Part shown: positions 22,912-40,400 of the stretch, in pieces
Numbering within the stretch: the stretch's first letter is position 1
How the letters are laid out: every line of letters begins with the position of its first letter
From: Kiritimatiellia bacterium
Lineage (GTDB): Bacteria > Verrucomicrobiota > Kiritimatiellia > UBA8416 > JAWODU01
Assembly: GCA_046483125.1 (NCBI GenBank)
Contig: JAWODU010000085.1
Coordinates: forward strand, 1,430 to 65,429
Direction: 5' to 3'
Length of the DNA: 64,000 nucleotides
Position numbers and translations under genes: made by a program
The notes under the pieces: model-generated
What the model was told of the DNA's origin: nothing
The model's input: only the letters and a program-made list of their open reading frames with translations
Databases searched by the model: none

Positions 22912-23058
22912 TTTCTTTTTCTTGTTGCCCCCCGGCTCCGCCCAACGTATTATCTGCCGCAAATCGTCCGCGGCCGTCGGCGTCCGCGGATCGGGATTCC
23001 CCCGGAAAGGAACCCTTTGCGGAGGGGTTGTGTTAACACATCAACGTGAGGAGCCATT

Positions 23059-23397
23059 ATGGGTATTGCAGCTCTCATTATCGGTATTGTGGCCGTAGTA
23101 CTGGGTTTTATTCCTTTTTGCGGCTGGTTTGCCCTGTTGCCCGCTGTAGTAGGACTTGCCCTCGGCATAGCTGAAATCTCGGTTAAGTCAAAAAAGGAAC
23201 AGCCTAAGGGCATGGGAATCGCGGGTCTTGTTCTTAACGGCGTGGCTATAGTGGTAATTCTCGTTTGGACGCTGGTTATTGCCGCGGGTGCAACAAAGGC
23301 GGCAAAAGAAGCCAAAGCGGAAATGGAAGCCGCCGGGGTCACAAACCTCCAGCAGATGATCGAAGAGGCGCAGGAAGTCTCAACGGCGACCAACTGA
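23059..23397 (+). CDS. DUF4190-like small membrane protein
   Basis: GIAALIIGIVA...GLALG.....K...KGMGIAGLVL. Confidence 0.75.
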   Translation: MGIAALIIGIVAVVLGFIPFCGWFALLPAVVGLALGIAEISVKSKKEQPKGMGIAGLVLNGVAIVVILVWTLVIAAGATKAAKEAKAEMEAAGVTNLQQMIEEAQEVSTATN

Positions 23398-23400
23398 CTC

Positions 23401-23811
23401 TTGTCTCGATCTTACAGGTCGGCAAACATGACAGTGCTGGGCCTGGTTCTCTATTGCCTGGCACTGCCTTTTTTATCGCCCTTCTTCTCGCGAATACTTC
23501 CCGACTGCCTTACGGCCTGCCCCTTTAGAACTCTCACGGGAAATCCCTGCGCCCTCTGCGGACTTACGCGCGGATTAAGGGCGCTGATAAACGGAAACGT
23601 AAAGGAGGCGGTGTCTCTTAACCCCCTGTGCGTACCGATAGCGGTATTGCTTTTTTTCGAAGCAGTGTTCAGATCGACAATGCTGATTCTTTCGCGCTAT
23701 CGGGAAATACCCGGCCGTGTGATACGACTGGACCTGTTGTTTCATATCGCGCTTCTGGCGACATACCTCGCCTATACCTCGGCATTCGCTCTCAGTACTT
23801 ACGCGTACTAA
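23401..23811 (+). CDS. DUF2752-family membrane protein (start 23401 or 23428)
   Basis: CPFRTLTGNPCALCGLTRG...A..LNP. Confidence 0.85.
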   Translation: MSRSYRSANMTVLGLVLYCLALPFLSPFFSRILPDCLTACPFRTLTGNPCALCGLTRGLRALINGNVKEAVSLNPLCVPIAVLLFFEAVFRSTMLILSRYREIPGRVIRLDLLFHIALLATYLAYTSAFALSTYAY

Positions 23812-26800
23812 GGGCCCGGTACGCCACAGTCAGCACCAGCGCGATCAACAGGCCCGCACCCCACCTCAGCATTCTGCCGCCGCTCATTTTGAAACTTACA
23901 ACCATGTCCGCTTCCGGATCCGTCTGCATGCTTCGCCTGAACATGAGTTTCCGGCCGTGAGTGGGAATTGTTATTTTTATGGCCTGCGCGCTCCTTTCGG
24001 CCGCCGCCTGCTGATCCATTATGCGTTCAGAAAGCTTCAGAAGGCTCGTATTGTCCCTCTCGGAAAGCGACTGCTGGATTCTGTTGGCGTACTCGGCGGT
24101 GAAGTTGCCCTGCCTGAAGTCCTCTATCCTGGCCACCTGGCCGGCCTGCTGTATGTTCTTGTCGAACCGCATCTTGTCGCGTCTTTGAACAAGTCCCACC
24201 AGCGCCTGCTGTTTGGCAAGGTTGCGGAACTGGATCCTGGCGTCCTCGTTAAAGGCCAAGTCGTTTTGGGACCAGTTTACGGCCGACTCCAGGGCCTTGC
24301 GCGCCAGTTTCTGCTGTCCCTGTTGTGCGTACTTCTCCCCCTTGGCCAGCACAGATTTAGCCTTTTCCTGTTCCTCTGCAATCTTGCGCAGATTGCTGAT
24401 ATTGTATTGCTGTCTGGTAAAAGCCTGGAGGACCGGTTCTTTGTCTTCGACAGGGTTCATGGTGCCGCCGAACCCATAATACAGCCTTCCCGGCACTACG
24501 TAAAACGTCCATTCTATGTCCTTCTTGAGCGGCAAACCGAACTTCGGCGCCTTGTACGAAAGCCTGCTGGAATACCATTTCCCCGGCGAAGGACTGACGT
24601 AGACCATTTCCACTTCGGTTTTCTCACCCGGCACCGGTTCTTCCAGAGGGATCCTGTACACCCCGCCCTCCTCCGAAACCGAAGCCGCCTTGCCGTTTAC
24701 GAAGGCCGACCACAGTTCCGAACCTTCTTCCGGCAGTTCTATCTCCAGGAAGCGCAGGTCCCCCACCGTCATCTCCATGCTGACCCTGGTCAGTATATCT
24801 CCCTGGCCGGATACCACCGACGTCAGTCTTGTACTGCTTACTTCGGCGGGAAGCACCTCAGCCGCTCCATGCCGTATGACCGAAAGGTCCAGTTCATACT
24901 CGCCGCCTATTGTACGGAAACAGTATACGGCGTCCGACAGGTCCCCTGCCCCGAAATACCCGGGGACGGACCGGGAATCCTCCCTCTTAAGGCCCGCCGG
25001 CGTTCCCGCCGGACGAACCTCAGCTCTCCCTTCGGACATGACCGCGAGGTAGCCTTTGCGGCTTTCCACATCAAGCGGCACGATCGCCCGGATTTTTCCC
25101 GCCTGTGTCGTCTGGTACCGGGCCTCAAGCTGGTAGTCGTTCAGGACCTTGTTGTGAAGTTCCACCTCCCATATTCCCTTTTCCCTGTCGGCTTCATGCA
25201 CTTTCGCGATGTCGCGCCCGGTCATTGCAAGGGAAATACCGGGAGCCGGGGCCTTCAGCCGGAAAGTCTTACAGCCGGCGTGCTCAATCCTGTAACGGAC
25301 ATAGGCCGTGCCCCGCATCTTTCCCTCGGACAGATCCACCCTGTGAAGGACTTCGGTCCTTATTGTCGGCTCCACCGTTTCGGCCTTCAGTTGAATCATC
25401 CATTCCGGCCGAAGCAGTTTGAAAGCGAGCGCGCCGGTCTCCCTTATTCCCAGGTCCCGCGGATTCATCTCGCTCACGCCTTTGCGCATAACCGTACTCA
25501 TGCGCACCCCGCGCTCTCCCCTTACAACCATCTGTCCGGTGTGCTTGAGAGCGTCCTGTACTGCTATACGCGGCACGTATATCGTCTCCTCCAGTCCCTT
25601 CTCAGTCCGCGCGGCCACGACGTTAAGCGTCCGGTCGCCCAGCGCCTTTTTCCTGAAATGGACGATGACTTCCCTGGGGGTCCTGCCGTCGGCTTCACCT
25701 CCCACTTCATCCCAGTGACTCACGTCCTGGCCGGTCAGACTCTCCACGTCATATTCGTCCGGTATCCCGAGGCGTACCGAGAATATCCCGGCTTTACTTA
25801 TGCCGACCTTCAGGTGGGTGGAGAGGACTATCCGTTCGTCGGACACCGACATACTGCCGTTTTCCGCCACTCTCAGTTCCGGAAGCACCCTTTCGGCTGT
25901 CACCTTCCCCGAAGCGGGCGTTTTGTGATAGCGGAAAGCTCTTTTGATTTCCGGCACTTCCTTCATTCGCGCCGCTGTGCCGACCTCACGAACCAGCCGC
26001 TCCGAAACGTCCTCGATATTCATCGGGTGCAGTCCCTCTGTTTCACTGACAAGTATTTTCACGTTGCCCGGCACAGCCAGGGCCATCGAGCCTCTCTGCC
26101 TGACCGCGTCTTTCACCTTCAATATTCCGGCCTGAACTTTATACGGAAGACCCTCGCATCCGACCTGGCTTACCACGTGAAGCGTGAAGTCACCCGTAAC
26201 GGGTTTATCCACGATAGCCTCCAGCAGGCGTGTTTCCGGATCGAAGCGCCATGTACTCAGGCCCGGGGCTTTCACCGCCGTTACCGTCATATTCTCGGGC
26301 ACCTCAACGTTCATTGATTTCAGTTCGCCCTGGGCAATCTGGTATTTCACCAGGTTCGTAAGCTCGACTACCCCCGGCTGAAACACCGCCATGGTGTTCA
26401 GTTCAGAGAAGAAAACGACCTTTTCCAGCCTGGTTTTGCGCGCACGCGGCCGCCATGAGATAAATGCCTGTCTTGACATACCGTACACGGCAATAGCCTC
26501 CGTTACGTCTTCCTTCTCCGTAGTCTTGAACAGAACCGCGTCCGGCGATTCGACTTCAAGCTCGTTTTCCGGAATCTCGAGTTTCACCCTGTTTTTCAGA
26601 TTAGGAGGAATCCTCAAGCCGAGAAACCACGCACCCTCTTTTTCCACAAGGGGCAGAGAATACTTCAGATTGATTTCGTAATCTCCCCTTTCCTCAACCG
26701 TAAGCACGTACCCGTTCACGTCCGTGCGGAGCTGGAGGGCGGAAGAATTCAGATCGTAATCCGTAAGCACGGCCGGCGGTCTCAGGACGACAAACTCACT

Positions 26801-29800
26801 GCCCTTACGCCCTTCGAATTCATATACAGCGTCCACCCTCGCGCTCTTTTCCGCTTCTTCAGTCATTTCAGGCGCCTTCACCTGTATGTTCACTTCTTTC
26901 ATCGCGGGAAGTACGTCCGTTTCAGCCTTGTCTAAGGGCTCTCCAGCCGCCCAGCCCAGCGAGGCACCGATAATACCGATGGCCACAAGGCATGATATGG
27001 TGCCGTGACCTTGCTGGTGCCGGTCCGGTTCTTCCGGCTCGTCGAACCGGTCCGGCTCCACGGTGTCTTCCGTTTCCTCCTCAAAAGGCATCCCATCAAG
27101 AGGCGCTTCTTCGGAAGGCATTTCAGGAGGCCCGGCGGGAGCCGGTCCCGCCGGAACGGGGCGCCGTGTCCCGGCCGCGTATGCCGCCTTTACAAGGCGC
27201 AACACAACCGCGACAGCCACACCCACAGCGAACATGATCGTTATCAGGTTGCGGCCTGTTTCCAGTTGCGCCAGCCCGAATGTAAGAAGCGTAAAACCAA
27301 GTGCCGTGCACCAGGCCCTGCGCTTCCGGCCGGACCTCCCCTTCAGAATAAGCCAGAGAGAAAGCACGACGGCGACAACCGCCCAGAGGAGCGAGCTGTC
27401 CGCTCCTATCCATTCCGGTACCAGGCGCAGATCCACGGCAAGCGGTTCTGCTCCTTCGAGATTAACTGTCCTTGAAACGGAAAAACTGCTGCCGGCCGCC
27501 GGCCCGCGAAAAACGTCCACGGTTCTCTCAAGGCCGCTCCACATCCGGCCCAACTGCCACAACCCTCCCGCGAACAACACGGTTATCAGCGCGACCACGC
27601 CGAGGGCTCCCTGCCATCCGAACCCTCTGCCCCGGCCGGTATTGAAGGCCACAAGGCATGTAAACAGGACTGCCGCCAGCGCGACAACCGTCCACCCCGC
27701 GAAGTCTGTCAGGGCAATTCCGTACAGCTTCAGCATATTGCGCAGGGCTTCCACTATGCCGCCGGTCCATATCGACATCGCTCTGCTCATGTTTCCCCCC
27801 GCCGTACCTACGGTGTATCCTTCGGGAAGGAAAAACTCCCATTTCGCGAAGGTATTCGGTGTATTTCCCGTTACGGGGGCAAGAAACCTCATGCTTTTCC
27901 CCAGAGCCCCGATTTCGTCCCTGCTCCGCGCGTATACCACCTCGACCCGTACAGGCTCGTTAGGGTTCCTCAGCCGCCGCACCGGAATAAGAATGCGGCC
28001 GTCTTCCTTGAGTGCCGTTACTTCCGTCTTTTCTTCATTTGCATTTATAAGAGAGGTCGACCACAGGTTCGCCTCCTCGGGAATTGAGACAATCAGGTAC
28101 TGACGCGAAAGGTTCTTGACCGAATATTCCGCCGTAGTCACCGCCTCGCCGTCTTTGCTGATTCTCGTTGACAGCATTGTCAGATCCACCACGGCGTCAA
28201 GAAGGCGTTCTGTTTCGTAGCGCTTGATGCCGATTTTCGCGGTATGCGGATGCCCGGTGTACTTGTAAGCGTCGAGAATCGGATCGTTCACCAGAAGAGT
28301 GTAGGCCTCGGGCACTTCATCACGATCGACCTTTATTATGGATTTGTCGCGTTCCTGAAGCGTCAGGTTCAGCGCCGCGGCCCCCGCAAGCATGATATAC
28401 CCCGTCTCGGTGGTGGTCTCCACGGTACTGACCCCTCCCACTGTCACCTCGTCGGCCCTGTAAGCGAATTTTCTGTCGTAGGTAACTCCAAGCGTATAGT
28501 CTCCCATTACCTTTTCCTGGAGAGATATCTCCCACACTTCGCCGTCGTGTTTCCAGCCGCGCACGTCTCTGCCCGTAAATTCCACGTTCTGAAACTCTTC
28601 CGGTATTCTTATCCTGAAAGTCTTAACGGGCGCCCCGGCAATGTGATATGTGGCCGCGGAACTGCAGTAGAGCACTCCTTCCCCTATGGACACCAGGTGG
28701 AACAATTCGGAGTGTATGGTTGGTTTTGTTCTTTCGAACTTCACGTCAAGCGACCACTCGCCCTCCTTGTACCGGTAAGCGAGCTGGGCCCCGGGCACTT
28801 TCACGGGGACCGATCCGGTTTGAACTTCCCGCAGTTTCCCGGTTTCGCACTTTTCTATCCTGAGGCCCTTTTCCACCGACAGAACCAGGTAGCCGCGCTG
28901 TGATTCAGAGTCCCTGATCACGAAAGCCGGCGCCTGAAACCGCGTCTTGTCCCCCGGAAGCGACTTTTCAAGCCGCACGTTTACCAGTGTCCGTCCTGTT
29001 ACGGCGTCCCGGAAAAACACGCTTATTTCACGTTTGCCGTTCCTGGTACGAACGTTGTAATCCGAAAGCGCCGCTCCGCTCACGTTGGCCACGATCCAGT
29101 CGGGGTCCGTCTCTATAACGATCTCCCTCGCCGGTGCGTCACGCACGTCAAGTTCCACCGAAGCCGCCAGTACCAGGTCGCTGTCCTTCACGGACAGTAC
29201 AAGCTGTTCGTTACTGCTGTATTCCGAGACAATATCGTCGATGGAAAGTTTGAGTGTATAAGGCACGTTGGCGTACTGGTAGGCGAACCTGCTCCTGGAC
29301 GGCAGTGTTCTCCCGCTTTGTTTCTTTCCCTCCAGGGCCACTTCCGGAAACGACGTCTGGTCCACCTGAGTCAGTCCGAGCGCCTTGTCCACGAGCAGTT
29401 TAATCGCGCTGTCAGTGCCCAGCATGAGGAACCCACTGCTCCGGATTACCCGCCGGGGAATAATCACCGGGAGTTCCAGTTCGCAGGGAAACTTGGGCAG
29501 AACCGTTTCGCTTTCCACCCTCAGCATATAGTCCTTTTCCTTCGGACGGCTCAGAGTCACCAGGAGCGTGCGCGCCGCCTCGCCTTCCTTTTCCTGTATT
29601 ACCCAGTCCTGTATATCCTCGCCGCGCACCTGAGTGACGCTCAGTTCCTCCGGAAGCCTCAGAGGAATCTCTTTAAGACTGCCCTGCACGACACGGTATG
29701 TGAATACGTTGTCTATTTTGAGCGCTCCCACGCTCGCCGACGCTATTGTGTTGGCGTCGCACGCCACCACCAGGTCGGCCGCGAGTTTCTTCACTTCCGG

Positions 29801-30367
29801 CTTCCATTTCACGTTGAAACTGCCCGCCAGCCCCAGAAACGCGGTTACTTCCATGTCCCCCTTGTCCGTTTTGACGCGCTCGACGTTCAGCGCGCCCGGA
29901 AAGCGGATTTCGAGGTCATCCCGGTCGCACAGAATGGACACTTTTCTTATGTCGGCGCCCGGAATGGAGAAACTGGCAGAGCGCCAATCGCCTTCCCTGG
30001 CGGCCCTTCCCGCGAATTTGAACTCTACCGTCCGTTTTCCCGAATCGAAGCTCCAGAAACCGCCCTTACGCTTCATTTTGAGAATATACCGGTCCGACCC
30101 GCGGATAAGCTCGGAATTCGAAGGAAGATCTCCTTCCAGGTAGGCCACATCTCCTATTAAAAGCGGCAGGCTCACGGCGTCCTGCTCAAGCTCTGCCGTA
30201 AACGAAAGCGTGAAAGTGATATTCTCGCCTTCTATCCTGCCGTCGAGCTTCAGCCCCGATATTTCCACTCCTTCGGTCCGTGGAAGCGCTTCCTTTTGCC
30301 CGCGAGCCCAAGCACCCGCCGGCGCCATTAACCCCGCCAACGCTATTACCGTAATCAGTCTTTTCAT
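23792..30367 (-). CDS. Giant (2191 aa) secreted/membrane protein of two homologous halves with repeated beta-sandwich-like units
   Basis: Uninterrupted ORF with N-terminal signal (AWA), SD AGGGAG, a central multi-TM block, a C-terminal TM and an internal duplication. Confidence 0.9.
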   Translation of the reverse strand: MKRLITVIALAGLMAPAGAWARGQKEALPRTEGVEISGLKLDGRIEGENITFTLSFTAELEQDAVSLPLLIGDVAYLEGDLPSNSELIRGSDRYILKMKRKGGFWSFDSGKRTVEFKFAGRAAREGDWRSASFSIPGADIRKVSILCDRDDLEIRFPGALNVERVKTDKGDMEVTAFLGLAGSFNVKWKPEVKKLAADLVVACDANTIASASVGALKIDNVFTYRVVQGSLKEIPLRLPEELSVTQVRGEDIQDWVIQEKEGEAARTLLVTLSRPKEKDYMLRVESETVLPKFPCELELPVIIPRRVIRSSGFLMLGTDSAIKLLVDKALGLTQVDQTSFPEVALEGKKQSGRTLPSRSRFAYQYANVPYTLKLSIDDIVSEYSSNEQLVLSVKDSDLVLAASVELDVRDAPAREIVIETDPDWIVANVSGAALSDYNVRTRNGKREISVFFRDAVTGRTLVNVRLEKSLPGDKTRFQAPAFVIRDSESQRGYLVLSVEKGLRIEKCETGKLREVQTGSVPVKVPGAQLAYRYKEGEWSLDVKFERTKPTIHSELFHLVSIGEGVLYCSSAATYHIAGAPVKTFRIRIPEEFQNVEFTGRDVRGWKHDGEVWEISLQEKVMGDYTLGVTYDRKFAYRADEVTVGGVSTVETTTETGYIMLAGAAALNLTLQERDKSIIKVDRDEVPEAYTLLVNDPILDAYKYTGHPHTAKIGIKRYETERLLDAVVDLTMLSTRISKDGEAVTTAEYSVKNLSRQYLIVSIPEEANLWSTSLINANEEKTEVTALKEDGRILIPVRRLRNPNEPVRVEVVYARSRDEIGALGKSMRFLAPVTGNTPNTFAKWEFFLPEGYTVGTAGGNMSRAMSIWTGGIVEALRNMLKLYGIALTDFAGWTVVALAAVLFTCLVAFNTGRGRGFGWQGALGVVALITVLFAGGLWQLGRMWSGLERTVDVFRGPAAGSSFSVSRTVNLEGAEPLAVDLRLVPEWIGADSSLLWAVVAVVLSLWLILKGRSGRKRRAWCTALGFTLLTFGLAQLETGRNLITIMFAVGVAVAVVLRLVKAAYAAGTRRPVPAGPAPAGPPEMPSEEAPLDGMPFEEETEDTVEPDRFDEPEEPDRHQQGHGTISCLVAIGIIGASLGWAAGEPLDKAETDVLPAMKEVNIQVKAPEMTEEAEKSARVDAVYEFEGRKGSEFVVLRPPAVLTDYDLNSSALQLRTDVNGYVLTVEERGDYEINLKYSLPLVEKEGAWFLGLRIPPNLKNRVKLEIPENELEVESPDAVLFKTTEKEDVTEAIAVYGMSRQAFISWRPRARKTRLEKVVFFSELNTMAVFQPGVVELTNLVKYQIAQGELKSMNVEVPENMTVTAVKAPGLSTWRFDPETRLLEAIVDKPVTGDFTLHVVSQVGCEGLPYKVQAGILKVKDAVRQRGSMALAVPGNVKILVSETEGLHPMNIEDVSERLVREVGTAARMKEVPEIKRAFRYHKTPASGKVTAERVLPELRVAENGSMSVSDERIVLSTHLKVGISKAGIFSVRLGIPDEYDVESLTGQDVSHWDEVGGEADGRTPREVIVHFRKKALGDRTLNVVAARTEKGLEETIYVPRIAVQDALKHTGQMVVRGERGVRMSTVMRKGVSEMNPRDLGIRETGALAFKLLRPEWMIQLKAETVEPTIRTEVLHRVDLSEGKMRGTAYVRYRIEHAGCKTFRLKAPAPGISLAMTGRDIAKVHEADREKGIWEVELHNKVLNDYQLEARYQTTQAGKIRAIVPLDVESRKGYLAVMSEGRAEVRPAGTPAGLKREDSRSVPGYFGAGDLSDAVYCFRTIGGEYELDLSVIRHGAAEVLPAEVSSTRLTSVVSGQGDILTRVSMEMTVGDLRFLEIELPEEGSELWSAFVNGKAASVSEEGGVYRIPLEEPVPGEKTEVEMVYVSPSPGKWYSSRLSYKAPKFGLPLKKDIEWTFYVVPGRLYYGFGGTMNPVEDKEPVLQAFTRQQYNISNLRKIAEEQEKAKSVLAKGEKYAQQGQQKLARKALESAVNWSQNDLAFNEDARIQFRNLAKQQALVGLVQRRDKMRFDKNIQQAGQVARIEDFRQGNFTAEYANRIQQSLSERDNTSLLKLSERIMDQQAAAERSAQAIKITIPTHGRKLMFRRSMQTDPEADMVVSFKMSGGRMLRWGAGLLIALVLTVAYRALSTRKY

Positions 30368-30395
30368 ATCGGCCTTTCTCCCTTTATCTTCGTAC

Positions 30396-30679
30396 TGTCA
30401 AACCTGACAGCACGTTTTTCTGTGTAACTGTCCCTTTTTTCAGGTCATTAGCCGTTTTTCGACTCTCTCCCCCTTTTCCCAATACACTTAAACGCTTTCT
30501 TAACCGCCACCCTTTCCGCCGCGGCGGACGCACACCCTTAACCGACCTGCTTACTCGTCACGTGCCGGCCGTTGCAACAGAGTCGTTTAAGCGTATACGA
30601 CAAAGGGTAGCGGTTAAGTGTGCGATTAAGTGTTCCAACTCGTCCTACATCCGTTTTTGTCGCGGTAGAACTTTTGACA
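30396..30679 (-). mobile_element. MITE-like element copy 2 (inverted copy of 22187-22463)
   Basis: Near-identical reverse complement with the same TGTCAAA termini. Confidence 0.6.
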
Positions 30680-30736
30680 ATGCCTTTATCTCTTTCCGAT
30701 TTCCGGCTTAGTGCGAATAGCCGCATCTAAATCCCG

Positions 30737-33496
30737 TCAAAACTCCCCTCTCGCCATCCCGTTCGCTCCCTCTACCATCCTCACAAGCTCCTGCACCCTT
30801 TTATCCAGATGAAGTTCAAGCGACACCGGTCTCAGCACCCTGGCAACATCCTCATATGTGCTTCCCGCCGCGTGAGGACACCCCCGCAGTATTTCCGCGA
30901 ACTCCGCGACCCCCGCCGCAAGCTTGAAACGCGCGTCCATCCTGTTGAAATCGCCGGCCACGTCCGCGCCTCGCAGGGCCTTTTCTATTTCCTCCACTTC
31001 GCCGGTATCCATTCTTCTGTATCTTACACGCACCGTGGCAATAGCGTCCGCGTCGCTGCCCTTGAGTTTTCCATCCCGGAATTCCATCTCGTAGAGAGCC
31101 GTAACCGACTGGCCCGAACCCACTTCCCCGGCGTCAACCGTGTCGTCCCGGAACTGCTCCTTCCTGAGCTGGCGGTTTTCATATCCAAGCTGGCGGTAAC
31201 GCTTTACTTTCCGCGGGTTGAATTCCACCTGTATTTTCACGTCCGACGCGATCGTATTCAGGGTGGCGGCCATGTTGTCCACCAGCACACGTTTCGCTTC
31301 TTCTTTCGAATCGATAAAGCTGTAGGTTCCGTCGCCCTTGTTGGCCAGCTTCTCCAGCATCTCGTCGTTGTAAGTCCCGATACCGAACCCGAAGACCGAA
31401 CAGTAAATGCCCTGTTTCCTGTAATCGCTGATCTGCTCCAGTATGTCCTCGGCCGCGCCCGTACCCAGGTTCGCCGCCCCGTCCGACATGACCAGCACCC
31501 GGTTCGCCGCCCCGCCTTCGAAAGCCCTGGCCGCCTCAGCATAAGCCGTCCTCATGCCTTCTTCCAGGTTCGTGGAGCCCGTTGCGCGCAGGCGGTCCAG
31601 CGCCCCGAATATTCTTTCCTTTTCCGAAGCCGGGATGTGCGGAAGAACCAGCCTCGAATCAGAGCCGAAACGTACAATGCCCACCCTGTCGGAAGGCGCC
31701 AGTTCCGACACCAGCATCCTGACCGATTTCCTGACAAGCTCCATTCTGTCCGGCGTGTTCATGGAACCCGACGAATCTATAACCAGAGTCAGTACCGCCT
31801 TCTGCTGTTCTTCTCTGCCGAGGCGCTTGCCCTTGACACCGATTTTCATCAGGTACAGCCCACGCCCGAACTCCGAAGGAGCGCACTGGAGGTACACCCT
31901 GAACGTGTCCCTTTGCGGCGGATCGTATGCGTAATCGAAGAAGTTCACGAACTCCTCGGTGCGAACGGACTCAGCGGGAGGAAGAAAACCCCGCGTCATG
32001 TAATTCCGCGACAACGTGTACGAGGCGGTGTCGACATCAATGGCAAAAGTCGAAAAAGCCCGCTCCGAAGCATAGTAGAAAGGATTAACCCCGACAGCCC
32101 TGAACCGCGCCCCCGTTTCTTCCGGTTCCTTCGGTTTTGCTTTTGGCTCCTGTCTTTTGTAGAAATCAATACCTACTTCAATGTCTCCGGAATCCGAAAA
32201 GTCGACTTTTTCATTACCCTTGTTCACAATAACCGGGCTTTTGACTAAAGCCACCGAGTTGAAATCCGCGGGCTTGGGGCTGAAATCCGTAGCCGGGCCC
32301 GCGAACCTGGTCGGCGGCGATTCTTTTCCTGCCTTCTCACGGGATTCCGTCTCCGTGCGCTTCTTCTCTTCGAATAATCTGCCCTGAATCGGTATACCAC
32401 TGATCGCGGAAGCATGTTCGCCGTCCCCAGGCCGTCCTCCTGCTTCTCCCGACATGCGGCCCGTAACTTCTTCTCTCCTTCCATCCCTCTCAAGCCGGTC
32501 TGCATCCATCCGACGATAAATCTGCTCGGAAGCCCCATCCATGGTTTCCGCCAGCTCTGCCTCAGCCGGTGTCCCTGCATGCCAGAAGAAATCCTTCTTT
32601 TCGGCCTTTTGCGCCGATTCACCGCCTTCTGTGACTTCCTTCTGTTGTACGCCCGAATCAGCATTGGCTCTCTTCTTTTTTCCCGCAACGGCACTTCCCC
32701 GCGCGCCCGAGCTTCTTGATCCGAAAATGCCCTTCATTATCACCGGACTCTTAACGATGCTGTCCTCCAGGTCCGGGAATTCTTCCATCTCTTCAGCCGG
32801 CGCGGGCTCGCTCGGTAACGCCGCGCCTTCCTGCGCCGGCGCTTCCCGCTCCGGCCGCGATGCGTCCAGCTCGAAGGAAACAGACATATCCGCGCCCGCC
32901 GGTGCGCCTCCCCCGCCGCCGCCGAATCCTGTTTCCCTGTCATCTTCCCGCACTTCATGCGCTTCGCGTAAGGCCCTACGCTTCCGATGCCTTGCCTTCT
33001 CACTTCCTTCAGCTTTCCTGCCTGTATCGGGGCCTTGCAGTGTTGCCCGCGCGGATTTTGGAGCCCTGTATCCGGCCGTACTGCTGTCTGCTACCACTTC
33101 ACCCATCTTGAAAGTAGCTTTCATCATCGACGGAACCAGAATCCCCGCGAATACAAATGTCAGGAGCAGACATGCGGCGGCGGCAGTCAGGACGGGATGC
33201 GACGAAAACAACCAGTACACAACCCTGCTCCCGCCCTTCCGTCGGGCTCCTGCCTTCGCCCCGGGCAAGGCATTTGTTATTTTCTGCCGGCGGGAAACGG
33301 ACAGATGCTCCGGTGCTTTGGAAGGCGGCTGTGCCAGGGCATCACGCAACAGATCGAGGGTCGGCTCGATTTCCCGCATGTATGCCCGGCAGTCGCCGCA
33401 CTTATCCAGATGCGCCTTCACCTCCGCGGCGGTCTTCCCGTCAAGATCCCCCAGCAGATACGCCGTCAACTTTTCTCTTATTTCTTCACACTTCAT
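30737..33496 (-). CDS. ZAS (zf-HC2) anti-sigma domain - TM - long linker - YfbK-type vWA module (vWF_A + vWA + DUF3520)
   Basis: HLDKCGDC (HxxxCxxC), TM helix, STFAIDVDTASY, MIDAS DSSGS...TN...SDG, IASDVKIQVEFNP, AGEVGSGQSVTALYE. Confidence 0.9.
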   Translation of the reverse strand: MKCEEIREKLTAYLLGDLDGKTAAEVKAHLDKCGDCRAYMREIEPTLDLLRDALAQPPSKAPEHLSVSRRQKITNALPGAKAGARRKGGSRVVYWLFSSHPVLTAAAACLLLTFVFAGILVPSMMKATFKMGEVVADSSTAGYRAPKSARATLQGPDTGRKAEGSEKARHRKRRALREAHEVREDDRETGFGGGGGGAPAGADMSVSFELDASRPEREAPAQEGAALPSEPAPAEEMEEFPDLEDSIVKSPVIMKGIFGSRSSGARGSAVAGKKKRANADSGVQQKEVTEGGESAQKAEKKDFFWHAGTPAEAELAETMDGASEQIYRRMDADRLERDGRREEVTGRMSGEAGGRPGDGEHASAISGIPIQGRLFEEKKRTETESREKAGKESPPTRFAGPATDFSPKPADFNSVALVKSPVIVNKGNEKVDFSDSGDIEVGIDFYKRQEPKAKPKEPEETGARFRAVGVNPFYYASERAFSTFAIDVDTASYTLSRNYMTRGFLPPAESVRTEEFVNFFDYAYDPPQRDTFRVYLQCAPSEFGRGLYLMKIGVKGKRLGREEQQKAVLTLVIDSSGSMNTPDRMELVRKSVRMLVSELAPSDRVGIVRFGSDSRLVLPHIPASEKERIFGALDRLRATGSTNLEEGMRTAYAEAARAFEGGAANRVLVMSDGAANLGTGAAEDILEQISDYRKQGIYCSVFGFGIGTYNDEMLEKLANKGDGTYSFIDSKEEAKRVLVDNMAATLNTIASDVKIQVEFNPRKVKRYRQLGYENRQLRKEQFRDDTVDAGEVGSGQSVTALYEMEFRDGKLKGSDADAIATVRVRYRRMDTGEVEEIEKALRGADVAGDFNRMDARFKLAAGVAEFAEILRGCPHAAGSTYEDVARVLRPVSLELHLDKRVQELVRMVEGANGMARGEF

Positions 33497-33567
33497 AAAT
33501 CACCAGCGCCCCGGCCCTGTTATACCCCGTCTTTTCCGGCCTTCCTGTAAAATCTTTCCCTTTCGCG

Positions 33568-34125
33568 TTATTTCGCGCCTTTCGCAGTTCCTTCGGCTCC
33601 CTGCACTTTCTCCGCCATCTTTCTCACTGCGTGATGCAGTATATTCCCCACGTTGCCCTCGCTCCTGCCCGTCACCTCGCTTATTTCCCTGTACGACATT
33701 CCGTGCTCAAGACGCAGAAGCAGAACCTGCTGTTCTCTCGGCAACAGCGCCTTCAGATGTTCCAGCACCAGCGCCTTCCGCTCGTCTTTGCCGGGACAGT
33801 TCCTTCCGTCCGGACAGTCATCCTTTTTTTCCTCGGCGTGCCCTCTGTACAGTTTCTGAAGCCGCGATTCCCGCCTGATAAAATCCACCGCCTCGTTATG
33901 CGTAACCCGGTAAAGCCAGCTTTTCAGCCCGGCCGAAGGCCGAAGACCTGGTTTCCAGGCCCTGAAAAGCTTGATGAACACGTTCTGAACCACGTCTTCG
34001 GCAATGAAAGGGTTGTTGGTGATTCGCGACGCGTAACGAAGAAGCGGCGTTTCGTGCCGGGCCACAATCGCCTCCATGCGGGCCGCCCTGCCCGCGGCAT
34101 CTTCACCTCGTTTCGTACCTTGCAT
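33568..34125 (-). CDS. ECF RNA polymerase sigma factor
   Basis: AEDVVQNVF, KSWLYRVTHNEAVD, region 4 LLPREQQVLLLR...SYREIS. Confidence 0.93.
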   Translation of the reverse strand: MQGTKRGEDAAGRAARMEAIVARHETPLLRYASRITNNPFIAEDVVQNVFIKLFRAWKPGLRPSAGLKSWLYRVTHNEAVDFIRRESRLQKLYRGHAEEKKDDCPDGRNCPGKDERKALVLEHLKALLPREQQVLLLRLEHGMSYREISEVTGRSEGNVGNILHHAVRKMAEKVQGAEGTAKGAK

Positions 34126-34445
34126 CAGCGACCCTCGATCATGTCATTCCAACAGTGATAACGTATGTGACCCCCCGCTTCCTTCAGGATATTTGCCGAT
34201 TTTTTCTCCGAAAGCCAGAAAAATGCTGATCCGCCCCCCGCGCCGGCCCCTGAAACAGCCCCGAAACCCTCATCCTCCCAACATTAGAATTGCACATCGC
34301 CTGTTCCCTATTCTCAAGCGCACCTTCTCAAGCGCAAGCTTACCTCCAAAAGTCTCAATATCGATTACAGCTTAATATCGATCTCTATTGACCCTGAGGC
34401 CTCCTTCTTTTATCCCTTGGTAGTGAAAGGGTCTGAACTCTAATC

Positions 34446-36167
34446 ATGGATAACCGCAACCACCTGATTCAAATGCTCCAGCGCATCGACGGCCGCGGAT
34501 ACCCGGCCTACAGGGATATCCGCGGAGCTTACGATTTCGGGAATTTCACCCTGTTCGTAGACCACGTACAGGGAGATCCTTATGCCGCCCCCAGCAGACT
34601 CAGGATCTCCGTGCCGATGGAAATCGCGGCCTTTCCGGAACATTGCCTGAACAGCAGGATACGGCAAATCGCATTGCGCGATTTTCTCGCGCGCCGCTTC
34701 TCGCGGGCCTGCAGGGACGCGTGCTCGCGTCTCGGCTCGGGTAAAAGCGGAATGATCGCAATGGACGCGCCGGGACAGGAAATCCTGGAACGGTCGGCCG
34801 TCATGCTGTCGGATAATTCCGTTGAAGCGCGTTTTACAGTCGGGCTTCCGGCGCGGGGCAGAAGAATACTTGGGCGCCGCGCGGCCGATCTGCTTTGCGA
34901 TACTTTGCCGGCCATTGCCGGCTCATCGCTTCGTTTTTCGTCACTTGACCCCGATGAAGTTCGCGTCCATCTGGATACGGCGGAAGACGCGGAAAAACTG
35001 CGTCTTGCTCTCAAAGACCACGGCCTGGCCGCCTTTATCGCCGAGGGCAGTATACTGCCCAGACGCTCCGGCGTGGACGAGCGCCCCCTCAAGGGAAAGA
35101 CTGTAGTGCCCTTTGAAAGCCCCGAAAGCCTGGCGGTAACCATCGATATCCCGCACGCCGGACGGGTAACCGGGATGGGCATTCCCGAGGGCGTGACTCT
35201 GATCGCAGGGGGCGGTTATCACGGGAAAAGCACCCTGCTGTCCGCTGTCGAGGCCGGAGTCTATAATCACTTACCCGGAGACGGGCGCGAAAAAGCGGTG
35301 ACCGATCCCTCGGCCGTAAAGATCAGGGCTGAAGACGGCCGTAGTGTGGCAGGCGTCAACATACATCCCTTCGTAAGCAATCTTCCCGACGGAGGCAATA
35401 CGGAATGCTTCAGCACCGAAAACGCCAGCGGCAGTACCAGCCAGGCGGCCAATATAATGGAGGCTATGGAAACGGGTTGCCGCCTTCTCCTGCTCGACGA
35501 GGATACCTGCGCTACGAATCTGCTGATCAGGGACGCGCGCATGCAGAAACTTGTGGAAAAAGCGGGCGAACCGATTACACCCTTCGTGGACCGCGTAGGC
35601 CCACTGTTCAGGGAGAATAATGTAAGCAGTATTCTGGTTCTCGGCGGCAGTGGCGACTATTTTGACAGGGCCGATACGGTTATCCGCATGGAAGCATATC
35701 GTCCCCGAAACGTCACCGAAGACGCCAGGAAGATCGCCGCTCAACAGCCCACGGGCAGGGCCGCCGAATCCGTCGGGGAGTGGCCCGGATCATTACGCGG
35801 CAGGATTCCCGATCCGCGCAGTCTCAGCCCTCGCAAAGGAAAACGAGAGGTCAGCATCAAGACACGCGGCGTGAGATACCTTCTGTACGGCACGGAGGAA
35901 ATAGATCTGAGTTTCGTTTCGCAGTTAGCGGACCCCGGTCAGGTACGGGCCATAGGCCGGGCGATTTATGCGGCCGGGAAACGACTGGAGGCGCAGGGCC
36001 GGAAGGAAAGCGTTGCCGAGCTGGCCCATGCGCTGGCCGCCGAAATCGCGCAAAAAGGTCTCGACACACTGGATGACCGTCAGTTCGGCGATTATGCCGC
36101 ATTCCGTCCCTGCGAATTTGCCGCGGCCATGAACAGGCTGAGGACATTGCGAATGGCCGCGCCTTGA
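34446..36167 (+). CDS. ABC-class ATPase domain protein (ABC_ATPase/PF09818-like, non-transporter)
   Basis: HVQGDPYAAPSR, GGGYHGKSTLL, IRAEDGRSV, STENASGSTSQAANI, LLLDEDTCATN. Confidence 0.9.
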   Translation: MDNRNHLIQMLQRIDGRGYPAYRDIRGAYDFGNFTLFVDHVQGDPYAAPSRLRISVPMEIAAFPEHCLNSRIRQIALRDFLARRFSRACRDACSRLGSGKSGMIAMDAPGQEILERSAVMLSDNSVEARFTVGLPARGRRILGRRAADLLCDTLPAIAGSSLRFSSLDPDEVRVHLDTAEDAEKLRLALKDHGLAAFIAEGSILPRRSGVDERPLKGKTVVPFESPESLAVTIDIPHAGRVTGMGIPEGVTLIAGGGYHGKSTLLSAVEAGVYNHLPGDGREKAVTDPSAVKIRAEDGRSVAGVNIHPFVSNLPDGGNTECFSTENASGSTSQAANIMEAMETGCRLLLLDEDTCATNLLIRDARMQKLVEKAGEPITPFVDRVGPLFRENNVSSILVLGGSGDYFDRADTVIRMEAYRPRNVTEDARKIAAQQPTGRAAESVGEWPGSLRGRIPDPRSLSPRKGKREVSIKTRGVRYLLYGTEEIDLSFVSQLADPGQVRAIGRAIYAAGKRLEAQGRKESVAELAHALAAEIAQKGLDTLDDRQFGDYAAFRPCEFAAAMNRLRTLRMAAP

Positions 36168-36296: not shown

Positions 36297-37442
36297 ATGT
36301 CCCCCGATCCGCTTACGCCTTACGGTAACCGTCCCATGGTTACGCCGATCGTTAACGCGGTGAACTACGAGTACCGTGACTTCGAGGTCCTTCGCCGGAT
36401 CACAGACGGCGAAATTGACGGATACACCTATCACCGCGATGACAATCCAACGGTGCGCGCCGTGGAAAAGAAAATCGCGGCCATGGAAAACGCCGAAGAC
36501 TGCGTCATCTGCACCACCGGCATGGCGGCCTGCACGATGACTTTCTTCACCTATCTCAAGGCCGGCGACAACCTGGCTATTTTCCATGACGTTTACGGCG
36601 CTCATTACAAAGTTCACCTGATACTGAAGAAATTCGGCGTAGACGTGACATGGATAAAAGCTTCAGAAAGCGCGAACCTGGGCGAATACATCAAGCCGAA
36701 CACGACAATGGTATTTCTCGAAACACCCAGCAACCCGCTGTGTAAAGTTATCGATATTGCCGCCGCCCGCAAAGCGGCTGACAAGGTCGGGGCAATGCTG
36801 GTGGTGGACAACACGTTCGCGACGCCTTATCATCAGAAACCTCTTGAACTCGGAGCCGACCTGGTGGTGCACAGCGTTACCAAGGGACTCGGTGGTCACA
36901 ACGACCTTATGGCCGGCGCTATAGCGGGTTCAAAAGAACACTACGAGAACCTGTGGTTTACACGGCAGGCTATCGGAACAACGCAGGACGCTTACTCCGC
37001 CTCCCTGATCGAAAGGGGACTGAAAACTTTTGATTTGAGGGCCGAAAGAATGGCGTCCAACGCCATGGCCATGGCCGAATACCTTGAAGGCCATCCGAAA
37101 GTACCGAGAGTGTCCTATCCCGGCCTGAAAGCAGATCCCGGGCATGAAACGGCTTCGATGCAGATGGAAAACGGATACGGCGGGGTTCTGGCCTTTGAAG
37201 CGGGACAGACCCAGGAAGACGCCAGGAAATTCATAAGCGCTCTGAATGTAATATATCATACGGTTAGTCTTGGCGCCACTGAATCACTGATATGCATACC
37301 GTATCTTACGACTATGCTCTATCTTCCGCCGGAACGCAGAGTCAGTTTCGGTGTCAGGGAAAACACCGTACGCCTGTCAGCGGGCATCGAAGAACCCGGC
37401 CGGCTTATACGGGACCTTGAACAGGGTCTGCGGGCTGTATGA
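36297..37442 (+). CDS. PLP-dependent Cys/Met metabolism enzyme (cystathionine gamma-synthase/lyase or methionine gamma-lyase family)
   Basis: YHRDDNPT, LETPSNP, VVDNTFATP, HSVTKGLGGHND (PLP Lys), VSLG..ESL, RLSAGIE. ATG 36297 follows AAGGAA (alternative start 36261). Confidence 0.92.
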   Translation: MSPDPLTPYGNRPMVTPIVNAVNYEYRDFEVLRRITDGEIDGYTYHRDDNPTVRAVEKKIAAMENAEDCVICTTGMAACTMTFFTYLKAGDNLAIFHDVYGAHYKVHLILKKFGVDVTWIKASESANLGEYIKPNTTMVFLETPSNPLCKVIDIAAARKAADKVGAMLVVDNTFATPYHQKPLELGADLVVHSVTKGLGGHNDLMAGAIAGSKEHYENLWFTRQAIGTTQDAYSASLIERGLKTFDLRAERMASNAMAMAEYLEGHPKVPRVSYPGLKADPGHETASMQMENGYGGVLAFEAGQTQEDARKFISALNVIYHTVSLGATESLICIPYLTTMLYLPPERRVSFGVRENTVRLSAGIEEPGRLIRDLEQGLRAV

Positions 37443-40400
37443 AGAAACGCGCCATCGCGCCTCTTTTAGCATTAATCCTCTTTGCCCCATTCTGCTCGCA
37501 CGCTTCGTCCATATCTCTGAATATTGCGCCGTCAGTAGAAGTCGGAACTCAGCATGCGCGCGTTACCATAAATATCAGGAACCGGGGTACCAGTCCCGCG
37601 TTCGGAGTTCACGCAAAAGCCGCCCTGCAGGGCTCGGACCTGACCGAATCGGCCTGCGGTACGCTGAAAGCGGGAGATGAATGGTCAACCTCATCCCGAA
37701 TAGAGCAACTGCCGTCCCGCGAGGGCACTTATACGATTGTGATAACGGTTCGCTACAGGGATTCTGCGGGGCGGCCCTTTTCCGCGCTGGCCTGGATTCC
37801 GCTGAATATATGGGAACCGTCGATTGAAGACCCCGTCAAGGCATCGCTCACTTCAACCGATATTGCCCGTGAAGGCAAAATAACGCTTGCTTTGGAACAT
37901 ACGGGCAGAAAATCGTCCTTGCCCGCGGCACCGCTGAAGGCCGCGGTAAAGCTTGTGCTTCCCGATGAACTCGAATGTGCCGACGCGGCCCGAAGCGCGT
38001 CCGTACTCCCCGGCAGCAAGACCGAACTGAAGTTCCACGTCCGTAATGCCTCGGCGCTTGAGGGAAGCGCGTACCGCGTGTTCGCCGTCGTGGACAGTGA
38101 GACCGGAGAACGCCATGAAAGCGTGGTAACTGCGGCCGTACTGAAAATACCGGAAAGACAGTTGCCCTTTTTTCTCCGCAAGCCCTTCTGCCTGACGCTT
38201 TTCCTGCTGTTTGTCCTTTCGTCCGCCCTAATGCAGGTCCCCTCCCTGAGACGCAAGTCACTGCGCGTACTGCCGGAAAGAGCTCCCCGAATCCTGAAGA
38301 CAGCTTTTCCCTTCCTGGTTTTTTCGGTACTGTTCGCAACTCTTTTTTTCTTTATCCCCCCGTCATATCTCCTGCTCGACACCATGACCACCGGCGGGGA
38401 TACGCCTGCGCACAACTACATTGCCGGACACCTGAAAACGCAATTGTTCCAGCACGGCAGAATCCTGTCCTGGGCGAACGGATGGTGGTGCGGTTTTCCC
38501 GCGTTTCAATATTATTTCCCCCTGCCCTATCTTCTGATTGCACTGCTGAGCCTTATTGTTCCTTTCAACATAGCCTTTAAACTGGTGAGTGTTTCGGGAA
38601 TATTCCTCCTGCCCGCCGCCGCGTACTTCTCGGGCAGAATCATGCGCATGCCCAGGCCTGTGCCAACGGTTCTTGCCGCATTCACACTGCCTTTCCTGTT
38701 TGATTCCTCACATGTAATGTGGGGCGGCAACATCCACAGCACTCTGGCGGGTATGATTGCCAACAGTGTCGGTTTCCCCCTTATGCTGGTTTTCATGGCC
38801 CGGATATGCCGCGACTCCGAGGACGGCGTGTTCAGGTTAAGGACGGCTCTTCTTCTGGCCGCGCTTATTGCATCCCATTTCTTCACTTCACTGCTGGCCG
38901 TAATCTGCGCGGCTTTCCTTCCCTTTGCGTACTTGCGGAGGCGCTTTGTCAGGACCGCCGTTATAGTCGCTTCCGAATGCCTTCTGGGCGCTCTCGTGAT
39001 GTCATGGTGGCTTATACCCCTGATAGCAAAGAGAGGACTCGCCGTGGACTTCGGATACAACTGGGATGTTTCTCTTGTTCAACATACTTTCGCGAGTTTT
39101 CCCGGCTGGATGGTTATCACGGTGTTTGCGCTCGCGCTGATTCCGCCGGCCGTTCTGTTTTTCCGCCGGCATTTCTTCCCGTACACGGTTCTCCTGCTGT
39201 GTATGATAATTGTATCCGCTTTTCTGTTTACCGCCGGTTACAGTCTCAGCCGCGTTTTTGTAAACGTCCGATTCTGGCCCTTTATCATGTATTCCGTGCT
39301 GTGTCTGGCGGCAATCGGAACCGGCATCCTGCTGAAGCGGCTTAAAGCGCCTCGCCTCGCGGCGGGCGCGGTACTCATGGTAATTATCATGTTATGCTCG
39401 GCGGATTCCCTGAACCTTCGCCGCTTCGCGGAATGGAATTACGAAGGCCTGGAAAGCAAGCATGGTTATCCGGTATTCCGGGAACTTGTTTTTCCGCTCG
39501 ACGGTTCCCCCGGAAGGCTGGCAAACGACCTCCACCCGGCCAATGAATCCATGGGGTCATCGCGGGCGTTCGAGTGCGTTCCCCACCTGATAGACAAACC
39601 GATACTCGAAGGCGGCATAGTTAACTCGGCTTTCGGGTCGATGTTTTCATATTACATTCAGGGGTTGACCTCGGAGAACACGGCCGGGTTTCCCAATGTG
39701 GTGATTCCCGCCACATTTGACTTTGCCAACGCCGCAAAGTACCTTGAGCTTTTCAACGTCAAGCACTTTATAGCGCGCGGCGCCGCTCCCCGCGCGTATC
39801 TCGCCCGTTCCAACGCATGGCGCCCGCTTCGCCGGTTCCGGGAATGGGAGCTTTACGAACTTACCACTCACGACGGCGGTTACGTGTTTGTGCCTAATAA
39901 AACCCCCGTTGCCGTTTTGTCCGACTTCGGTACGCGGCAATGGAAAGAGAACGCGCTCGCCTGGATGTATGTTCCCGCCGCCCTTGACTATCCCTTTGTA
40001 TTCATCGGCCGTTCCCGGAGTAATCAATTACCGTCATCCATTCCCGTTCTCACCGAAGCGGAATACCGGTATTTTCTTACAACTCTCATGGACAACGACG
40101 GCAGTATCCGCACGTGGCTCCTTCTGGGCCCTTTTGACCTGGTTTCAGAAACACATGACGAGGAACCGCCAGGCCGTTTACATCTTGACCCTGGTACGGT
40201 CGATCCCGTGTGCGGCAAGATAACTTCCGGGCGCCAATGGCGGCGGGCCCCCCTGCGCCTCCCTGTAAGACCGGACAGGTTCTACCGCCGCAATAACGGC
40301 CTGATTTACTTCACCAACAGAACAACGTACGCATTTGCGAACATCTTTTCGCGCGAGCATCGTGACGGAATACTGCACTACTCCGGAGACGATTCTCTTA

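Follow-up and report, generated by a model that had tools for sequence, protein, structure and literature searches.

Does the row of genes for an extracytoplasmic function (ECF) sigma factor, a putative anti-sigma factor carrying a von Willebrand factor A (vWA) module and a giant membrane protein constitute a single regulatory unit, and if so, what would the vWA module sense? This question is raised by a stretch of 64,000 nucleotides (nt), hereafter the window, from a Kiritimatiellia bacterium (assembly GCA_046483125.1, contig JAWODU010000085.1, positions 1,430-65,429, forward strand). Three genes lie head-to-tail on its minus strand, at 33568-34125 (185 amino acids, aa), 30737-33496 (919 aa) and 23792-30367 (2191 aa), and all three open reading frames are present where a first-pass annotation of the window had placed three co-oriented genes. 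From the comparative analysis reported here, it is reasonable to propose that they form an ECF signalling operon of this Kiritimatiellia-type (PVC) bacterium, self-contained and under positive autoregulation, in which the vWA module would serve as the sensor and the giant protein would belong to the regulon of the sigma factor. We regard this picture, taken as a whole, as fairly probable.

The 185-aa protein comprises the sigma regions 2 (Sigma70_r2, residues 21-88, E = 4.8e-16) and 4 (Sigma70_r4_2, residues 121-170, E = 5.8e-13) of Pfam, lacks regions 3 and 1.1, and is within the length range of ECF sigma factors (~170-200 aa). It scores 94.4 bits against the NCBIfam model TIGR02937 (sigma70-ECF, cutoff 42.9); in NCBIfam only this generic superfamily model is exceeded, and no equivalog reaches its cutoff. 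The nearest solved relatives are SigL and SigE of M. tuberculosis. The ECF identity that had been assigned to this protein is thus corroborated by the presence of regions 2 and 4 only and by the TIGR02937 score.

The 919-aa protein starts with a domain of the zinc-binding anti-sigma (ZAS) type, a zf-HC2 match at residues 3-37 that contains the HxxxCxxC motif H29-x3-C33-x2-C36. It is followed by a single transmembrane helix, the equivalent of which (residues 88-137) is found in 37 of 37 orthologues, and by a linker of ~340 aa that is rich in A, E, G, S, R and K. The carboxy-terminal part is a YfbK-type module composed of vWF_A (residues 463-549, E = 7e-23), VWA (569-733, E = 8.4e-20) and YfbK_C (744-912, E = 9.6e-42), all above the Pfam cutoffs. 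Its metal ion-dependent adhesion site (MIDAS), D574/S576/S578/T642/D672, is complete, and these positions are invariant in all 37 orthologues. Total length, on the other hand, ranges from 760 to 1432 aa among the orthologues, and the linker alone is responsible for this variation. Judging from these alignments, the MIDAS is under strict selection while the linker varies freely. The first-pass annotation had recognised the ZAS domain, the single transmembrane helix and the complete vWA module with its MIDAS; its estimate of ~400 aa for the linker has to be corrected to ~340 aa, a value that is highly variable among orthologues. A sequence search of the PDB with the anti-sigma factor gave no match. 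Taken together, the domain content supports the assignment of the two proteins as an ECF sigma factor and its class-I (ZAS) anti-sigma factor, with predicted binding of the sigma factor by the latter.

Several lineages have two YfbK-type vWA proteins beside one sigma factor and one two-module giant. Such pairs are seen in locus L082 (8000-12355), in L056 (340-3960 and 4666-7701) and in L033 (3-2408 and 3099-5924), and Pontiellaceae bacterium B1224 carries tandem ZAS-vWA genes for proteins of 656 and 784 aa. Such pairing hints that each vWA chain might correspond to one module of the giant (a 1:1 ratio).

The order of the three genes is conserved well beyond the window. Two giant homologues with 46-47% identity are preceded by the same arrangement of sigma factor and zf-HC2/vWF_A/VWA/YfbK_C protein, within wholly different flanks. 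A scan of one genome per species yielded 77 giant loci, which were searched by tblastn with the sigma, ZAS and vWA parts of the window proteins; loci were considered evaluable if no less than 4.5 kb of DNA was available on their upstream side. The sigma factor and the vWA protein are encoded upstream of the giant gene and on the same strand in 37 of 37 evaluable loci, and the ZAS part was detected in 34 of them. The result is the same from the opposite direction. The best 120 vWA homologues are again of the Kiritimatiellia type, and in three of three contexts retrieved through the vWA protein the order is sigma factor, ZAS-vWA protein and a gene for a protein of 2078-2099 aa that has no Pfam match. 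One of these contexts stems from an isolate, Pontiellaceae bacterium B1224 (GCA_029432815.1; phylum Kiritimatiellota). The first-pass annotation had named a failure of the three genes to co-occur in other genomes as grounds for giving up its idea of an envelope-sensing system; the genes do co-occur. Considering that dozens of loci share this order at only 40-58% identity and among unrelated flanking genes, the triplet is, as far as such comparisons go, more than a product of chance.

Within the triplet, the stop codon of the sigma gene and the start codon of the anti-sigma gene overlap by 4 nt in 22 of 38 loci (in the window they are separated by 71 nt), and ZAS and vWA parts reside in a single reading frame in 37 of 39 loci. 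The spacer between anti-sigma and giant genes usually measures 25-430 nt, and the 369 nt of the window fall within this range. In that spacer (30368..30736) no terminator-like site was found on the coding strand, and scans for terminators and sigma-70 promoters did not rise above background level. A perfect inverted repeat, CTGTCAGGTTTGACAG in minus-strand reading, is located at 30395-30410, ~25 nt 5′ of the giant start codon.

More direct evidence for a regulatory unit came from the upstream regions. Enumeration of dyads in the 250 nt upstream of 39 sigma genes revealed a TGAAG...ACGT dyad in 16 of the 39 regions, compared with at most six in shuffled sequences. The aligned consensus reads TTTTnnTGAAGAnA-N-ACGTCT; in 29 loci the core TGAAG-N17-CGT[CAT], with the two elements exactly 17 nt apart, is positioned 55-77 nt before the ATG. 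When a relaxed pattern was applied to the region from -140 to -20 of the sigma gene, 31 of 41 loci matched, against a background of 1.7% per 120-nt window (binomial P ~6e-47, a figure inflated by the relatedness of the loci). A motif of the form TGAAG-N17-CGTC has the shape typical of ECF promoters, which in the autoregulatory case have an AAC-like -35 and a CGT-containing -10 element. The window copy, TGAAGGAAGCGGGGGGTCACATACGTT, combines a -35-like TGAAG with a -10-like CGTT and begins 61 nt before the ATG (34186-34160, minus strand). When all 64 kb of the window were scanned with a position weight matrix and with patterns, no further convincing site came up: there are seven strict matches, six of them away from the sigma promoter, and by our own estimate ~4 are expected.

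Another sequence, GATCGAGGGTC, is conserved 4-17 nt before the start codon of the sigma gene in at least 15 of 39 loci; the window reads gatcgagggtcgctgATG at 34131-34141 (minus strand). As it is conserved beyond the need for a Shine-Dalgarno sequence, it may be an element of the 5′ untranslated region.

It is important to note where the ECF motif occurs when the operon is broken. Among 48 intact operons, only one has the motif within the spacer between anti-sigma and giant genes. In contrast, it precedes the giant gene by 49-189 nt in all four loci in which this gene is uncoupled from the pair. In two of these (L033 and L075) an inserted gene on the opposite strand causes the uncoupling, and in the other two (L015 and L072) the giant gene is without any sigma or vWA gene upstream. 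Since the motif moves to the giant gene in the uncoupled loci, the giant would belong to the regulon of the sigma factor, and this "promoter hopping" is the strongest evidence for such membership that the comparison of loci provides here. In the window, a search for a separate ECF promoter of the giant gene in the 369-nt spacer found none. Because this spacer contains neither an ECF motif nor a minus-strand terminator, expression of the giant gene by read-through is likely. Hence, the motif conserved upstream of the sigma gene, together with its relocation to the giant gene in split operons, indicates that the sigma factor probably controls the operon, as the first-pass annotation had suggested. 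The two genes that split the operon, L033 6331-7356 and L075 6687-7724 (both minus strand), are homologues of each other (29% identity, E = 6e-51). Each encodes ~343 aa without a Pfam match, and neither the window nor any other locus has such a gene.

The giant protein itself has no Pfam or NCBIfam match over its 2191 aa. A Pfam search with 30 orthologues of its first module at E <= 1 gave no consistent match either; only DUF6188 recurred, in seven of the 30. A self-comparison, however, aligned residues 124-861 with residues 1243-1971 (23% identity, E = 2e-51), and therefore the protein has arisen by internal duplication of a module of ~850 residues. Hydropathy profiles of the window protein and 17 aligned homologues indicated a cleavable signal peptide (residues 1-21) and seven transmembrane helices, at ~890, 925, 996, 1025, 1045, 1128 and ~2172. 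Six of them form a membrane block between the two modules (residues 886-1145), which includes a periplasmic loop that is conserved (939-992) and, on the cytoplasmic side, an acidic linker (1060-1123). According to the charge pattern, the segments NTGRGRG and KGRSGRKRR, the acidic linker 1060-1123 led by RR, and the carboxy-terminal STRKY are on the cytoplasmic side. As the positive-inside rule is obeyed with this arrangement, both modules, the loop 939-992 and the region 1985-2160 would be periplasmic. The predicted topology is that of an inner-membrane protein that faces and fills the periplasmic space. The earlier designation as a surface protein is incorrect in view of the signal peptide, the seven transmembrane helices and the positive-inside charges, which point to an anchor in the inner membrane and a periplasmic orientation.

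AlphaFold2 (AF2) models the first module as all-beta, with a mean predicted local distance difference test score (pLDDT) of 84.8 and a predicted template modelling score (pTM) of 0.46 from an alignment of 30 sequences. For the second module the values are 84.5 and 0.38, obtained with 25 sequences. Locally the models are confident, the low pTM is as expected of beads on a string, and either module is depicted as several beta-sandwich domains in a row. The second module is followed by a helical domain of ~140 residues, a beta hairpin and the transmembrane anchor. Foldseek searches of the PDB with both modules returned integrin alpha ectodomains, Ost1/ribophorin I, PIG-T and the amino-terminal domains of aminopeptidases, with TM-scores of 0.1-0.3. 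Integrin alpha is among the top matches for both modules (E = 2e-9 to 1e-6), at TM-scores of only 0.10-0.17 and a root-mean-square deviation of ~40 Å, and Ost1/ribophorin I and PIG-T match equally well. The modelled folds thus seem to reflect a generic membrane-anchored beta-sandwich array from which no function can be transferred. Membership in the alpha-2-macroglobulin family was also considered and rejected: the 2191 residues contain no CxEQ thioester motif and have no A2M match in Pfam, and the Foldseek probability for TEP1/C5 is only 0.16-0.35.

Within the periplasmic helical domain, the motif NEDARxQ (residues 2040-2046; window ~24230-24250, minus strand) is invariant in an alignment of 18 sequences and nearly so in one of 25. 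The invariant columns are E2041, D2042, A2043, R2044 and Q2046 (alignment A1). This motif is a candidate for an acidic MIDAS ligand and should be taken as a lead only. Anecdotally, it is present in the triplet member P0311 and absent from the stand-alone giants P0343 and P0305. Its use as a marker that tracks linkage to the sigma gene was dropped, as matching by regular expression proved unreliable.

The family to which the giant belongs is very large, entirely unannotated and not covered by Pfam. A word-index search recovered 208 homologues with 39-56% identity, and the best 120 of these are all 2019-2287 aa long. Every homologue matched is named "hypothetical", and the sources are metagenome-assembled genomes (MAGs) of Kiritimatiellae, "Lentisphaerae" and "Verrucomicrobia". 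With a profile of the first module, a search of 1.84 billion representative sequences gave 5,212 clusters with a limit of E <= 1e-3 and 1,823 with one of E <= 1e-30, and almost all of the top 150 matches are two-module proteins of 2.1-2.7 thousand residues. A divergent subfamily with an extra amino-terminal domain of ~240 residues still has sigma and vWA genes upstream. In the clade of the window protein, to the extent that it is represented by these loci, linkage of the giant to the sigma factor and the vWA protein is essentially obligate. In Kiritimatiellia and their relatives, giants of this family seem to belong to the core components of the envelope.

How could the three proteins act together? 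Anti-sigma domains of the class-I/ZAS type hold their sigma factor at the inner membrane until they are inactivated, usually by regulated proteolysis that sets in on the extracytoplasmic side, and MIDAS vWA domains bind an acidic group of their ligand via a divalent cation. According to the predictions, the carboxy-terminal part of the anti-sigma factor and both modules of the giant reside in the periplasm, tethered to one and the same membrane. In the proposed circuit, the giant would normally be transcribed by read-through from the sigma promoter and would be the main output of the sigma factor, placing two beta-sandwich arrays of ~850 residues each and a helical domain in the periplasm. The YfbK-type vWA module, exposed to the same compartment on a long disordered tether, would be the input domain, and the giant its likeliest binding partner. 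As long as the vWA module is engaged with correctly assembled giant, the anti-sigma factor would be stable and the sigma factor off. Loss, damage or occupation of the giant would free the vWA module and expose the anti-sigma factor to proteolysis, and the released sigma factor would then drive renewed expression of the operon, so that the circuit would be homeostatic. We have less confidence in this last part, i.e. that the giant is the monitored ligand and the circuit homeostatic, and direct contact between vWA module and giant, like the integrin-like adhesion sensing suggested by the first-pass annotation, is put forward tentatively, as a possibility. In the more elaborate version of an integrin-like, two-chain periplasmic receptor, the MIDAS would clasp an acidic motif such as NEDARxQ, and mechanical or ligand-induced release would trigger proteolysis of the anti-sigma factor. 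This version is doubtful and somewhat less likely than simple contact.

Several observations speak against parts of the proposed circuit. The spacer of the window motif is 18 nt long instead of the 17 nt of the consensus, and in 10 of 41 loci no recognisable motif is found upstream of the sigma gene. That the sigma factor of the same locus recognises the motif was deduced from where the motif lies and from the fact that ECF sigma factors usually regulate themselves. In addition, about 12 loci have a second element, TTTTACA-N4-TTTTACGG-N2-ATCTGACC, ~75-105 nt upstream of the giant start codon, which differs from the ECF motif (among them L016, L029, L043, L044, L046, L048, L065, L070 and L001/L062), and degenerate forms of it precede the stand-alone giants of L083 and L085. 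It may serve as another promoter or as an RNA element, and its occurrence suggests an additional, sigma-independent control of the giant. The loci are fragments of related MAGs, so that their counts do not represent independent events. Furthermore, two members of a more distant subfamily of 2.45-2.7 thousand residues (P0343 and P0305) stand alone, without a sigma or vWA gene; the giant family can therefore work without the ECF/vWA regulator and is broader than the triplet.

The alternative that survives best retains the regulon and dispenses with the contact. The sigma factor would drive the giant as a mere effector, an envelope scaffold or a protective structure that never touches the anti-sigma factor, and the vWA module would respond to a different cue, for instance a metal, a polysaccharide, a protein from outside or some other component of the envelope. 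The promoter evidence speaks to regulation and not to contact, which suits this view. YfbK-type vWA modules are also widespread without a giant neighbour (2500 homologues at E <= 1e-10), just as giants occur without sigma or vWA genes, and the length of the linker varies 3-fold while that of the giant is constant. On the other hand, adjacency of the vWA anti-sigma and giant genes is very strict over a divergence of 40-58% identity, both proteins are predicted to be tethered on the same face of the same membrane, and no other conserved gene of the neighbourhood could supply a ligand. On balance, we find it possible, if rather unlikely, that the giant is nothing but an output.

A thiol or zinc switch in the cytoplasm, by which HxxxCxxC would sense redox or electrophile stress in the manner of RsrA with the vWA module as an unrelated structural appendage, is far less probable still. 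It could be invoked because the motif is retained in 36 of 37 anti-sigma orthologues and because the window protein weakly matches the NCBIfam RsrA model TIGR03988 (27.9 bits, cutoff 62.5). As is generally known of class-I anti-sigma factors (RslA, ChrR, RsdA), however, HxxxCxxC is common in membrane anti-sigma factors that are not redox sensors, and RsrA-type sensors are small and soluble, whereas here a transmembrane helix and a strongly conserved periplasmic module of 460 aa with an invariant MIDAS are found, which favours an input from outside the cytoplasm. That the giant gene adjoins the sigma/anti-sigma pair without any functional tie, for which the 369-nt spacer of the window and the stand-alone homologues of other lineages might be quoted, is scarcely credible given that the order is kept in 37 of 37 loci despite turnover of the flanking genes and that the ECF motif stands upstream of the giant in exactly the four broken loci, as against one of 48 intact operons.

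The features of the proposed operon are compiled in Table 1.

Table 1. Features assigned to the sigma/anti-sigma/giant locus (positions refer to the window).
Feature	Position	Strand	Basis or remark
ECF-type promoter candidate TGAAGGAAGCGGGGGGTCACATACGTT	34160..34186	-	starts 61 nt 5′ of sigma ATG; motif common to orthologous loci
ECF (group IV) sigma factor, 185 aa	33568..34125	-	Pfam Sigma70_r2 + Sigma70_r4_2, TIGR02937
Anti-sigma factor, cytoplasmic domain (residues 1-90), zf-HC2/ZAS H29LDKC33GDC36	33227..33496	-	Pfam zf-HC2, E = 3.4e-12
Anti-sigma factor, single transmembrane helix (residues ~103-121)	33134..33190	-	hydropathy peak 2.48
Anti-sigma factor, periplasmic low-complexity linker (residues ~122-462)	32111..33133	-	composition
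Anti-sigma factor, periplasmic YfbK-type module vWF_A/VWA/YfbK_C (DUF3520)	30740..32110	-	Pfam, E = 7e-23, 8e-20, 1e-41
Spacer between anti-sigma and giant genes, 369 nt	30368..30736	-	no ECF motif, no minus-strand terminator
Giant, beta module 1 (residues 22-885), after cleavable signal peptide (1-21)	27713..30304	-	AF2, self-comparison
Giant, membrane block (residues 886-1145)	26933..27712	-	hydropathy, positive-inside charges
Giant, beta module 2 (residues 1150-1984)	24416..26920	-	AF2, self-comparison
Giant, helical domain (1985-2123), beta hairpin, C-terminal transmembrane helix (~2164-2190)	23795..24415	-	AF2, alignment A1, hydropathy

Upstream of the sigma gene lies a divergently transcribed gene for an ABC_ATPase/MRB1590-like protein (34446-36167). 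At the other end, two plus-strand genes for small membrane proteins, DUF4190 (23059-23397; a weak match under the Pfam cutoff) and DUF2752 (23401-23811), converge on the 3′ end of the giant gene, the latter overlapping its final 20 nt. With a divergent gene on the 5′ side and convergent genes on the 3′ side, the three-gene unit is bounded on both sides. A minus-strand reading frame of 147 codons at 22950-23393 was not accepted as a further gene, since its product is of low complexity, it is antisense to the DUF4190 gene and it has no homologue in any of the loci. Genes for an M16 peptidase and a leucyl-tRNA synthetase are found farther out, and the flanks consist of ordinary chromosomal genes. 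A few kb upstream there are genes for a 1176-aa PTPS_related membrane protein (37439-40969, plus strand) and a GT9 heptosyltransferase-like protein (40941-42098, plus strand), followed farther on by Wza-like polysaccharide-export genes (42787-43428), so that the surroundings may be seen as an envelope/polysaccharide neighbourhood. An Rfam scan gave tRNA as its only match.

The third major mode by which bacteria transduce signals relies on ECF sigma factors, and for most of their ~150 groups the input signal is not known. Systems with a vWA anti-sigma factor of the ECF289 type, to which the pair studied here is compared below, are among these groups. The locus ties such a system to one particular partner that is strictly inherited together with it, and to a defined motif, which makes sensing of a partner through the MIDAS a testable idea, and at the same time it offers a first handle on an unannotated family of membrane proteins of ~2,200 residues. 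Kiritimatiellota are known mainly for the degradation of sulfated polysaccharides, and the occurrence of the same operon in the isolate Pontiellaceae bacterium B1224 renders experiments feasible. Should the integrin-like reading be true, it would define a new class of ECF input, the metal-dependent self-monitoring of a periplasm-spanning scaffold, and provide the first function for a family that comprises over 5,000 clusters at 50% identity. In any case, the locus opens a concrete, testable way to find out which signal feeds an orphan ECF group and what the giant family does.

Among the well-known systems, sigmaE-RseA-RseB and sigmaV-RsiV also have membrane-bound anti-sigma factors of the class-I/ZAS type that are inactivated via their periplasmic domain; RsiV binds lysozyme directly. 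They share with the present locus the single-pass anti-sigma factor with a cytoplasmic sigma-binding domain, the autoregulated operon and, as proposed here, an extracytoplasmic domain whose ligand state decides on regulated proteolysis. Unlike in these systems, the sensor is a MIDAS vWA domain with YfbK_C on a disordered tether of 300-900 aa, the co-transcribed partner is a membrane protein of 2,191 aa, and no gene for a protease, an RseB-like protein or a receptor is conserved at the locus. The combination of a MIDAS vWA domain and a membrane-anchored beta-sandwich chain, predicted to be on the same side of one membrane, is reminiscent of integrins. However, no beta-propeller was detected in the giant, and there is no sequence similarity, so that the analogy is a functional one at most. 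A further lead, and only a lead, is provided by the Bat (Bacteroides aerotolerance) clusters, which comprise the membrane vWA proteins BatA/B, the beta-rich membrane protein BatD and tetratricopeptide repeat (TPR) proteins. There, too, an envelope vWA protein is encoded beside a beta-rich protein with signal peptide, transmembrane anchor and TPR-like helical segment. To our knowledge, Bat clusters do not contain a sigma/anti-sigma pair. Assignment of the giant to BatD or of the locus to the Bat clusters was rejected, as no match to BatD, BatA or MoxR/DUF58 was obtained with the giant (30 orthologues, E <= 1) or its neighbours.

The three-domain order vWF_A-VWA-YfbK_C is that of E. coli YfbK, for which no assigned function was found in the literature searched; in the present protein it is fused to an anti-sigma domain. 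The closest precedent is the group ECF289, which the main text of the ECF classification 2.0 describes as split from the original ECF20, with a cognate anti-sigma factor in which a von Willebrand domain is fused to DUF3520 (Casas-Pastor et al. 2021, PMC7826278). DUF3520 corresponds to Pfam PF12034, now YfbK_C, and vWF_A to PF12450. The 919-aa protein has the same architecture, with VWA, YfbK_C and zf-HC2 in one reading frame, and it is by this anti-sigma architecture that the sigma factor would be placed in ECF289. As presented there, ECF289 is a bioinformatic group, and no experimentally studied member was found in the literature. Nor did our literature search, which also covered anti-sigma factors with von Willebrand domains, bring up experiments on DUF3520/YfbK or on the sigma factors of Kiritimatiellota; the catalogue entry for ECF289 was all that it yielded. 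The first-pass annotation had called the system uncharacterised, which holds with respect to experimental studies and not with respect to the architecture, already catalogued as ECF289 in the text of that classification (PMC7826278). The main text of the ECF289 paper (PMC7826278) makes no mention of a giant gene at position +2, and no description of an obligate giant partner was found elsewhere in the literature. The system is therefore not categorically new: it is an ECF289-type pair joined by a co-regulated giant membrane protein that had not been described before. What appears to be new comprises this obligate partner, how it is built and how large its family is, the promoter motif, and the evidence that places the giant in the regulon of the sigma factor.

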